This document shows, in pieces, positions 15,717 through 16,416 of a DNA stretch of 24,912 nucleotides (its first letter is position 1; each line of letters starts with the position of its first letter). The position numbers and the translations under genes were made by a program. The DNA is from an uncultured Bacilli bacterium (GTDB taxonomy: Bacteria; Bacillota_I; Bacilli_A; RF39; UBA660). Where the stretch lies: NCBI GenBank assembly GCA_947631895.1, contig CANRMU010000001.1:1-24912 (forward strand), read 5' to 3'. Below the pieces are notes generated by a model. That model was not told the DNA's origin. It saw nothing but the letters and a program-made list of their open reading frames with translations, and searched no databases.

Positions 15717-15732
15717 ATTTCATTTTGATGTT

Positions 15733-15741
15733 TGCTATAAT
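15733..15741 (+). promoter_or_regulatory. Extended -10 promoter of small-peptide mRNA 1
   Basis: TGcTATAAT, conserved in copy 2; no good -35 at 17 bp spacing. Confidence 0.6.
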
Positions 15742-15803
15742 GATTTTAGAAATATTCAATTAGTTGAGCGTTTTGCCAATCTTCTTGTTGAAGGAAGGCT
15801 ATA

Positions 15804-15887
15804 ATGAACAAGAAAGATTTTTTAATTCTATCTTTAGTAATTATTATCTTATTATTATTGATATTGCTATTTATAGCATTAATATAA
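15804..15887 (+). CDS. 27-aa hydrophobic peptide 1 (MNKKDFLILSLVIIILLLLILLFIALI), candidate type I toxin
   Basis: RBS AAGGAAGG; paralog at 16181 is 20/27 identical with 6 synonymous and 7 hydrophobic-conservative codon changes, no indels, same stop position. Confidence 0.8.
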   Translation: MNKKDFLILSLVIIILLLLILLFIALI

Positions 15888-15888
15888 T

Positions 15889-15925
15889 AAAAAAATCACC
15901 TAACTTAAGCAATGAATTAGGTGAT
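15889..15925 (-). terminator. Intrinsic terminator of antisense RNA 1
   Basis: ATCACCTAA-loop-TTAGGTGAT hairpin followed by T7 on the minus strand. Confidence 0.75.
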
Positions 15926-15996
15926 GCACATATGTGGCAACACTCAACCTGCGACAATTGAATATTCCTTTTTTATTTTACGCAAGTTTCCTTGCC
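15889..15996 (-). ncRNA. Predicted ~108-nt antisense sRNA 1, candidate antitoxin
   Basis: Bounded by a sigmaA promoter and an intrinsic terminator; 5' GCAAG-GAAA-CUUGC hairpin; complementary to the 3' UTR of peptide mRNA 1; same layout in copy 2. Confidence 0.7.
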
Positions 15997-16002
15997 ATAT
16001 TC

Positions 16003-16031
16003 ATAATATCACAATAGAAAACATTTTTCAA
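16003..16031 (-). promoter_or_regulatory. sigmaA promoter of antisense RNA 1
   Basis: TTGAAA-17 bp-TATTAT with TGn extension. Confidence 0.75.
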
Positions 16032-16088
16032 GCCTATTGAAGCATTTATTATTTATTTTTTAATTCTCAAGGTAAAAGTCAAAATCTA

Positions 16089-16117
16089 TTGAATAATGCA
16101 ATTATGTTTGCTATAAT
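16089..16117 (+). promoter_or_regulatory. sigmaA promoter of small-peptide mRNA 2
   Basis: TTGAAT-17 bp-TATAAT with TGn extension. Confidence 0.75.
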
Positions 16118-16180
16118 TATTTTAGGAACATTCGATTAGTTGGGTGATTTGCCAATCTTCTAACGAAGGGAGGCGATATA

Positions 16181-16264
16181 ATGAACAAGAAAGATTTTCT
16201 CATTTTTTCTTTAGTAATTATAATATTTTTGCTTATAGTTTTACTATATGTAATTTTAATATAA
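16181..16264 (+). CDS. 27-aa hydrophobic peptide 2 (MNKKDFLIFSLVIIIFLLIVLLYVILI), candidate type I toxin
   Basis: RBS AAGGGAGG; paralog of the peptide at 15804. Confidence 0.8.
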   Translation: MNKKDFLIFSLVIIIFLLIVLLYVILI

Positions 16265-16298
16265 AAAAAATCACCTAACTCAGCAATGAATTAGGTGA
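16263..16298 (-). terminator. Intrinsic terminator of antisense RNA 2
   Basis: TCACCTAA-N12-TTAGGTGA followed by T8 on the minus strand. Confidence 0.75.
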
Positions 16299-16371
16299 AC
16301 CCATTAAAATGGCAACACCCAACATGCGAAAATTGAATGTTCCTTTTTTATTTTACGCAAGTTTCCTTGAC
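16263..16371 (-). ncRNA. Predicted ~109-nt antisense sRNA 2, candidate antitoxin
   Basis: Promoter, 5' CAAG-GAAA-CUUG hairpin and terminator arranged as in copy 1. Confidence 0.7.
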
Positions 16372-16377
16372 ATATTC

Positions 16378-16406
16378 ATAATATCACAAAAGAAAACTTT
16401 TTACAA
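16378..16406 (-). promoter_or_regulatory. sigmaA promoter of antisense RNA 2
   Basis: TTGTAA-17 bp-TATTAT with TGn extension. Confidence 0.7.
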
Positions 16407-16416
16407 GCTTATTGAA

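Follow-up and report, generated by a model that had tools for sequence, protein, structure and literature searches.

Type I antitoxin RNAs of Bacillus subtilis share 100-140 bp of complementarity with the 3′ ends of their toxin mRNAs, and RNase III cuts the resulting duplex (PMC6562991). In the bsrG/SR4 system, nucleotides 1-35 of the bsrG mRNA form a long helix, P1, with nucleotides 232-262, and a short stem contains the Shine-Dalgarno sequence; the terminator loop of SR4 contacts a bsrG loop, the 3′ arm of P1 then pairs with SR4, and nucleotides 1-33 become single-stranded (PMC3834814). Here we describe a 24,912-nt stretch of DNA (the window: assembly GCA_947631895.1, contig CANRMU010000001.1, positions 1 to 24,912) from an uncultured Bacilli bacterium of the RF39 lineage (UBA660), in which a gap between two genes holds a tandem pair of modules, each comprising a predicted gene for a small hydrophobic peptide and a convergent predicted gene for a small antisense RNA (sRNA). 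Judged from sequence alone, the architecture of the modules is nearly certain and a toxin-antitoxin function is probable; we think it likely that both modules are type I toxin-antitoxin-like gene pairs, of a family absent from Rfam, Pfam and NCBIfam.

The modules have in common with bsrG/SR4, txpA/RatA, bsrE/SR5 and yonT/SR6 a hydrophobic peptide gene that faces a convergent cis-antisense RNA, with a 3′ overlap of ~90-140 nt. As in bsrG, the module mRNA is predicted to be closed by a helix of its first ~35 nt with a 3′ segment (hereafter also P1), and its Shine-Dalgarno sequence to lie in a short stem; as in bsrG/SR4, the sRNA covers the 3′ arm of this helix, so that its binding would be predicted to free the mRNA 5′ end. 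RNase III, too, is available in genomes of the family, as it is in B. subtilis. However, the modules have no detectable sequence or profile similarity to the bsrG/SR4 group, their peptides (25-34 residues) carry the charged end at the N terminus, and their loci do not lie on prophages and number ~20 per genome. Unlike in the TxpA and BsrG families, for which an overlap with the open reading frame (ORF) is listed (PMC8594479), the module sRNA stops at the stop codon, outside the ORF. Moreover, in the module mRNA, unlike in that of bsrG, P1 is not followed by a terminator hairpin of its own, the 3′ arm running straight into the U tract, and binding of the sRNA is not predicted to tighten the Shine-Dalgarno stem in the way described for bsrG/SR4. 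The bsrG/SR4 design is therefore common to the modules, but membership in the bsrG/SR4 family is not supported, given the lack of homology, the sRNA that stops at the stop codon and the missing mRNA terminator.

Two further groups of systems bear comparison. The par locus of pAD1 (Fst; RNA I-RNA II) and SprA1/SprA1AS are, like the modules, Gram-positive systems whose antisense RNA is located on the 3′ side, clear of the ORF (PMC8594479). They also resemble the modules in having an mRNA 5′ structure that sequesters the ribosome-binding site, and in being multi-copy in some genomes. Unlike par, the modules have no shared bidirectional terminator, and their peptides gave no match to the Fst toxin profile at E values up to 10. 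The charged segment of Fst is C-terminal, whereas that of the module peptide is N-terminal. In hok/sok and aapA1/IsoA1, long-distance 5′-3′ pairing reportedly keeps the full-length toxin mRNA closed and inert, and the module mRNA is predicted to be closed by pairing of the same kind. However, these are proteobacterial families whose antisense RNAs pair with the 5′ region or the ORF rather than with the 3′ untranslated region (UTR), and the modules, unlike them, have no leader ORF and give no sign so far of activation by 3′ processing.

Anatomy of the tandem modules

The two modules occupy positions 15710-16416 of the window, in a 690-nt gap between a 186-aa ORF and a UDG-family gene (Pfam UDG match). 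An alignment of the two copies (15700-16095 and 16076-16440) gave 85% mean column identity across ~345 nt and a period of ~379 bp, the interior of the ORF being less conserved than the non-coding parts that flank it. This agrees with an earlier note on this DNA, which had described two diverged modules of ~377 bp, each with a promoter, 5′UTR, 27-codon ORF, 3′UTR and U tract on the + strand and with a convergent promoter, an RNA of ~108 nt and a terminator on the - strand; all of these parts were found in both modules where that note had placed them, with predicted sRNAs of ~110 and 108 nt (Table 1). The coordinates of the elements were checked by script, and a scan for promoters and terminators independently listed both - strand promoters, the + strand promoter of module 2 and the - strand terminator of module 2. 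The TGnTATAAT box of the + strand promoter is kept in every aligned member of the family.

Table 1 Elements of the two modules and neighbouring features (window positions)
Feature	Position	Strand	Remarks
Module 1, peptide promoter	15733-15741	+	Extended -10, TGCTATAAT; predicted start near 15748
Module 1, predicted peptide mRNA	15748-15976	+	~229 nt; the two ends pair together
Module 1, P1 5′ arm	15748-15779	+	Pairs with 15935-15968
Module 1, anti-Shine-Dalgarno (UCUUCUU) and Shine-Dalgarno (GAAGGAAGG) hairpin	15780-15799	+	Shine-Dalgarno 15790-15798
Module 1, ORF	15804-15887	+	27 codons, with Shine-Dalgarno; peptide MNKKDFLILSLVIIILLLLILLFIALI
Module 1, P1 3′ arm	15935-15968	+	Presumed mRNA 3′ end, with U tract 15969-15979
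Module 1, predicted antisense sRNA	15997-15888	-	~110 nt; 5′ hairpin, middle hairpin, terminator
Module 1, sRNA terminator hairpin	15896-15924	-	8 nt past ORF stop codon; followed by - strand U run
Module 1, sRNA promoter	16031-16003	-	TTGAAA-17-TATTAT with TG
Module 2, peptide promoter	16089-16117	+	TTGAAT-17-TATAAT with TG
Module 2, predicted peptide mRNA	16124-16351	+	~228 nt; P1 arms 16124-16155 and 16309-16343
Module 2, ORF	16181-16264	+	27 codons, with Shine-Dalgarno; peptide MNKKDFLIFSLVIIIFLLIVLLYVILI
Module 2, U tract	16344-16354	+	
Module 2, predicted antisense sRNA	16372-16263	-	~108 nt
Module 2, sRNA terminator hairpin	16271-16298	-	From terminator scan; followed by - strand U run
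Module 2, sRNA promoter	16406-16378	-	TTGTAA-17-TATTAT with TG
186-aa ORF	15137-15697	-	Adjoins module 1; no Pfam match
Promoter of 186-aa ORF	15716-15688	-	TTGACA-17-TATTAT; back to back with module 1 promoter
lon	12587-14890		~850 nt from module 1, on the lon 5′ end side
T-box leader	6295-6484	-	72.4 bits, E 7.7e-16
454-aa gene	4890-6254		Downstream of the T-box leader

The gene that adjoins module 1 had been given as 173 codons long; consistent with this, an internal start codon of the 186-aa ORF, equipped with a Shine-Dalgarno sequence, yields a product of 173 aa. A tblastn search of the loci that we fetched from related genomes detected no homologue of this ORF. Elsewhere in the window lies a T-box leader whose score is below the Rfam gathering score of 93, and which is for that reason absent from the output of a default scan.

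Conserved pairing in the antisense RNA and in the peptide mRNA

The structure of the sRNA was captured in a covariance model, R1 (131 positions, 31 base pairs), with both window copies in its seed. R1 matches module 1 at 15887-16003 (69 bits, E ~7e-10) and module 2 at 16262-16378 (68.8 bits), and the sRNA of module 1 folds better than shuffled sequence (z -3.2). Among 91 R1-aligned matches, 83.4% of cells in the sRNA helices hold standard pairs, as against 34-47% when the partners are slid, and 28 of the 31 pairs show compensatory change; none of 500 shuffles matched the observed values, in an alignment that is fitted to the structure and so biased towards it, and from genomes that are related rather than independent, such that the shuffle counts exaggerate the significance. 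An RNAalifold analysis of plain MAFFT alignments of the sRNA had given little signal because the stems were one column out of register, and was replaced by the model-based alignment. Across the family, GU pairs exceed AC mismatches both in the 5′ hairpin (46:18) and in the terminator (54:23), which favours folding of the - strand. Conservation within the module is highest in the sRNA, which is complementary without mismatch to the ~89-nt 3′UTR, the P1 3′ arm included, and whose 3′ end falls at the stop codon.

P1 itself pairs the first ~32 nt of the mRNA with the ~34 nt directly before the U tract. The predicted fold of the module 1 mRNA (-52.4 kcal/mol) has a z score of -3.6 relative to shuffled sequence, with ~24.6 bp of end-to-end pairing in the ensemble; for module 2 the minimum free energy is -67.0 kcal/mol, P1 accounts for 22.5 bp in the ensemble, and a duplex of the two arms is worth -35.0 kcal/mol. 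Covariation in the mRNA was gauged on 29 full transcripts aligned by plain MAFFT, with no fitting to a structure. In this alignment the two P1 segments are paired in 92.6% and 89.0% of cells (slid controls, 35-44%), 16 of 22 pairs show compensatory change, and GU outnumbers AC by 53 to 21 on the mRNA strand, which argues for pairing of RNA rather than for an inverted repeat that acts at the level of DNA. The window copies differ from each other in P1 by two double changes, U-A to C-G and A-U to G-C. The arms of a module pair with each other at a mean of -33.6 kcal/mol, and with the arms of other clusters at ~-10 to -27 kcal/mol per module, mostly ~-16. The equivalent of the Shine-Dalgarno hairpin is 71.8% paired across the family, with compensatory change in four of its six pairs, and ensemble folding of 32 modules gave ~23 bp of P1 and a Shine-Dalgarno sequence that is mostly paired (unpaired probability 0.26). 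Local 5′ and 3′ hairpins in place of P1 were rejected, with less than 1.5 bp of local pairing in the ensemble. For an Fst-like pairing between the 3′ part of the sRNA and the mRNA 5′UTR, an idea that came from an apparent direct repeat, the difference in energy was too weak to support a claim (-18.5 kcal/mol for a module's own pair, -15.7 for pairs of different type).

Within each sequence type (L036:1504-1747 is an example), the stem of the hairpin that follows the stop codon recurs in P1, as CAUCUGA/UCAGAUG in one type and as CACCUAA/UUAGGUG in the type found in the window, and this shared stem sequence makes alternative pairings possible among the 5′ arm, the hairpin and the 3′ arm. When one consequence of such pairings was put to a test by duplex energy, the signal was weak. 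The duplex between an sRNA and the mRNA of its own copy was calculated at ~-150 kcal/mol, and that between the two window copies at ~-100 kcal/mol, a value that makes cross-talk likely; each window sRNA can probably pair with the mRNA of the other copy too.

Selection on the peptide, decay of its gene and spread of the family

Peptides of the family begin with M-[TNSRGK]-[KE]-[KRQ]-[ED], followed by a hydrophobic stretch, and those of the window are predicted to be single-helix membrane peptides of 27 residues. Other species of the genus carry ORFs near-identical to that of module 1 (L049, L086). Among 40 distinct 25-codon ORFs, nucleotide diversity is 0.31 at the first codon position, 0.18 at the second and 0.38 at the third, T occupies position 2 in 90% of membrane-helix codons, and the pooled ratio of nonsynonymous to synonymous change (pN/pS) is 0.25; between the two window modules pN/pS is ~0.32, with 11 of 20 differences at third positions. 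By these codon statistics the peptide ORF is under purifying selection. Such selection would also be expected if the peptide were a small membrane protein that does no harm, for example a micro-protein with a regulatory or structural role, and if a cis-antisense RNA set its level with no toxin-antitoxin logic; this reading draws further support from the placement of the modules between housekeeping genes and from the want of a match to any toxin family. We nevertheless consider it unlikely: the ~21 paralogues in less than 1 Mb, with at least five sequence types among them, their tandem arrays, the frequent decay of the ORF while the sRNA gene is kept, a position that varies among close relatives and a Shine-Dalgarno sequence that is mostly paired fit toxin loci better than a housekeeping micro-protein.

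The peptide and sRNA genes are closely coupled. Counting a facing ORF when its stop lies within a few nucleotides of the sRNA 3′ end, we found an ORF with a Shine-Dalgarno sequence and a hydrophobic product opposite 68 of 91 sRNA genes, as against 5 of 283 control positions, and the distance between the end of the sRNA terminator and the stop codon is 0-5 nt in most copies. The other 23 sRNA genes, each still a full-length R1 match, mostly face ORFs that have decayed, for example through a frameshift (L061, L078), a premature stop (L045, L071, L039, L089) or a 5′ deletion (L051, L070, L084, L035, L066, L050, L032), and in one case through loss of the stop codon (L060). In the opposite direction, R2, a sequence-only model of the promoter, 5′UTR and ORF start, gave 25 matches in five near-complete genomes, of which 24 have a convergent R1 match at the expected spacing and the remaining one is a weak partial match; R2 is less sensitive than R1, and a comparison of the two therefore gives no count of the orphan sRNA genes that other genomes contain. 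In the source genome every copy that has the 5′ part of the mRNA also has an R1 match, one of them weak (C34, E 0.005), and three orphan sRNA genes have no intact facing ORF (C72:880-1013, C8:12497-12625 and C81:3395-3514). These three are perhaps antitoxins that have been left over and can pair with the mRNAs of paralogues. An orphan sRNA gene in another genus (L066, G122:C13) lies ~90 nt past the 3′ end of lon, a gene that also lies near the window modules (Table 1); this shared proximity is probably a coincidence.

The orphans, together with the strong conservation of the sRNA, raise the question of whether the sRNA is the main product, one of a family of trans-acting regulators for which the facing peptide gene is secondary or one target among several. 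However, most orphans adjoin recognisable remnants of an ORF, which marks them as products of decay, and the variable middle hairpin of the sRNA changes together with the mRNA 5′ arm of its own module, which points to a target within the module. A primary role in trans is therefore, in our estimation, very unlikely.

The source draft genome (890 kb in 113 contigs, 25% G+C, 67.7% complete) holds 22 copies of the module by nhmmer and 21 by R1, which form at least five sequence types; many stand in tandem arrays of two to four, between housekeeping genes. At the ends of several contigs a module is directly followed by a run of G (C78:4625-4635, the low-coordinate end of C82 before position 104, L033 and L038). 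These runs are probably an artefact of sequencing or of assembly and an indication that assembly breaks at the repeats, so that the copy number is a lower bound. As the earlier note had proposed, related genomes were searched for the module: R1 matched 88 of 149 sampled genomes of the host's bacterial family, in 54 of 86 genera, always at full length and with up to 17 matches per genome, and matched none of 137 genomes from 26 other families of Bacilli, a null result that doubles as a control for specificity. An exact 33-nt motif of the sRNA was present in 48 stretches of the genome collection, from the gut of rabbit, chicken, ruminant and human, in records titled as uncultured Bacilli, as Tenericutes or Mycoplasma metagenome-assembled genomes, as Candidatus Ventrenecus, as Candidatus Scybalousia or as Clostridium sp. 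CAG:433. It was also present in 44 metagenome contigs.

Orthologues of the UDG gene occur in 28 of 40 genomes of the same genus, and none of the 23 loci that we fetched has an adjoining sRNA gene; the homology of relatives to the window stops at the 3′ end of the UDG gene, and a comparison of these 23 loci for synteny and empty sites gave no clean insertion boundary. Copies of the window type in other species have different flanking genes. The missing modules and the differing flanks together indicate that modules turn over or move between sites. Mobility of this sort, many copies, an inverted repeat on either side of the ORF and the frequent position of modules at contig ends are all features of a selfish repeat of the miniature inverted-repeat transposable element type, in which the repeat would act at the level of DNA and the ORF and the RNAs would be incidental. 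That explanation is extremely improbable given the GU:AC ratio of the repeat (53:21), which favours pairing of RNA from one strand, the conservation of both promoters, which lie outside the repeat, and the codon-position signature of the ORF with its pN/pS of 0.25; moreover, no target-site duplication or transposase turned up, though neither was searched for.

Proposed mechanism and place of the family

What we report here is anatomy alone, and the scheme that follows is drawn from the best-studied Gram-positive systems. The closed mRNA would be stable and poorly translated. The sRNA would first contact it through complementary loops, most likely, by analogy with bsrG/SR4, those of the sRNA terminator and of the hairpin that follows the stop codon, and would next invade and open P1. 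RNase III would then cut the long sRNA-mRNA duplex, and the freed 5′ end of the mRNA would be exposed to RNase J, for which the source genome has two genes, and degraded. In cells that run short of the sRNA, the peptide would be made, insert into the membrane and arrest or kill the cell. We also considered an elaboration of this scheme that we regard as rather unlikely. In particular, the 5′ arm of the mRNA would mimic the middle hairpin of the antitoxin and compete with the sRNA for its site in the 3′UTR, so that the closed mRNA would be a protected, sRNA-resistant store of toxin message, and the ~20 copies of at least five mutually non-pairing types, with the orphan sRNA genes, in a reduced genome of ~1.3 Mb would reflect a continuing conflict within the genome that sets addiction modules against anti-addiction antitoxins.

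The type I toxin-antitoxin reading put forward in the earlier note is supported, in that every part of such a system that is open to sequence analysis was found at this locus; its comparison with the bsrG/SR4 layout was also apt, the bsrG mRNA having a 5′/3′ closing helix whose 3′ arm is the target of SR4 (PMC3834814). Several observations weigh against this reading. Addiction modules are often carried on mobile elements, and we found no match to the family in phage or plasmid collections, nor to the 33-nt motif in IMG/VR contigs. Searches of Pfam with 27 peptides and of NCBIfam with eight gave no match to a toxin family. Sequestration of the Shine-Dalgarno sequence triggered by the sRNA, as described for SR4, is not supported, the unpaired probability of this sequence in 32 modules being 0.25 with the 3′UTR blocked and 0.26 in the free mRNA; no change is thus predicted there upon sRNA binding that would account for the onset of translation. 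RNase III was not found in the source draft, which is 67.7% complete; all 40 family genomes with a completeness of 90% or more have it. Finally, the three public sequencing runs that cover the window yielded only short contigs of low depth, from libraries of a kind that is unknown or probably DNA.

The earlier note could place the peptides in no family, and we arrived at the same result. No Rfam family reached its threshold in the window, the sole toxin-related match below threshold being BsrG (12.7 bits against a gathering score of 55, E 2.6), and eight further loci gave nothing in Rfam at E values up to 0.1. An exact look-up of ten peptides in a collection of 15 billion proteins found none of them, and an Atlas protein search returned only unnamed clusters (score 0.76). 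Our literature search turned up no paper linking RF39 with type I toxins, and none of the family descriptions of T1TAdb has the same combination of features (PMC8594479). The family is thus new relative to Rfam, Pfam, NCBIfam and the papers searched.

All of the peptides have been missed by gene callers. If they are toxic, a type I toxin-antitoxin family is missing from annotation and from Rfam, Pfam and NCBIfam. The source draft devotes ~0.9% of its DNA to ~20 copies of the sRNA gene, and related genomes of ~1 Mb, in the sample searched, hold up to ~17. The family offers dozens of natural variants of a bsrG/SR4-like RNA switch, which are useful for the study of antisense specificity and of end-to-end pairing in mRNAs. 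Should the peptides prove toxic, the strongly reduced genomes of uncultured Bacilli from the gut of human, rabbit, chicken and ruminant would be seen to keep, or to be unable to shed, many such modules.

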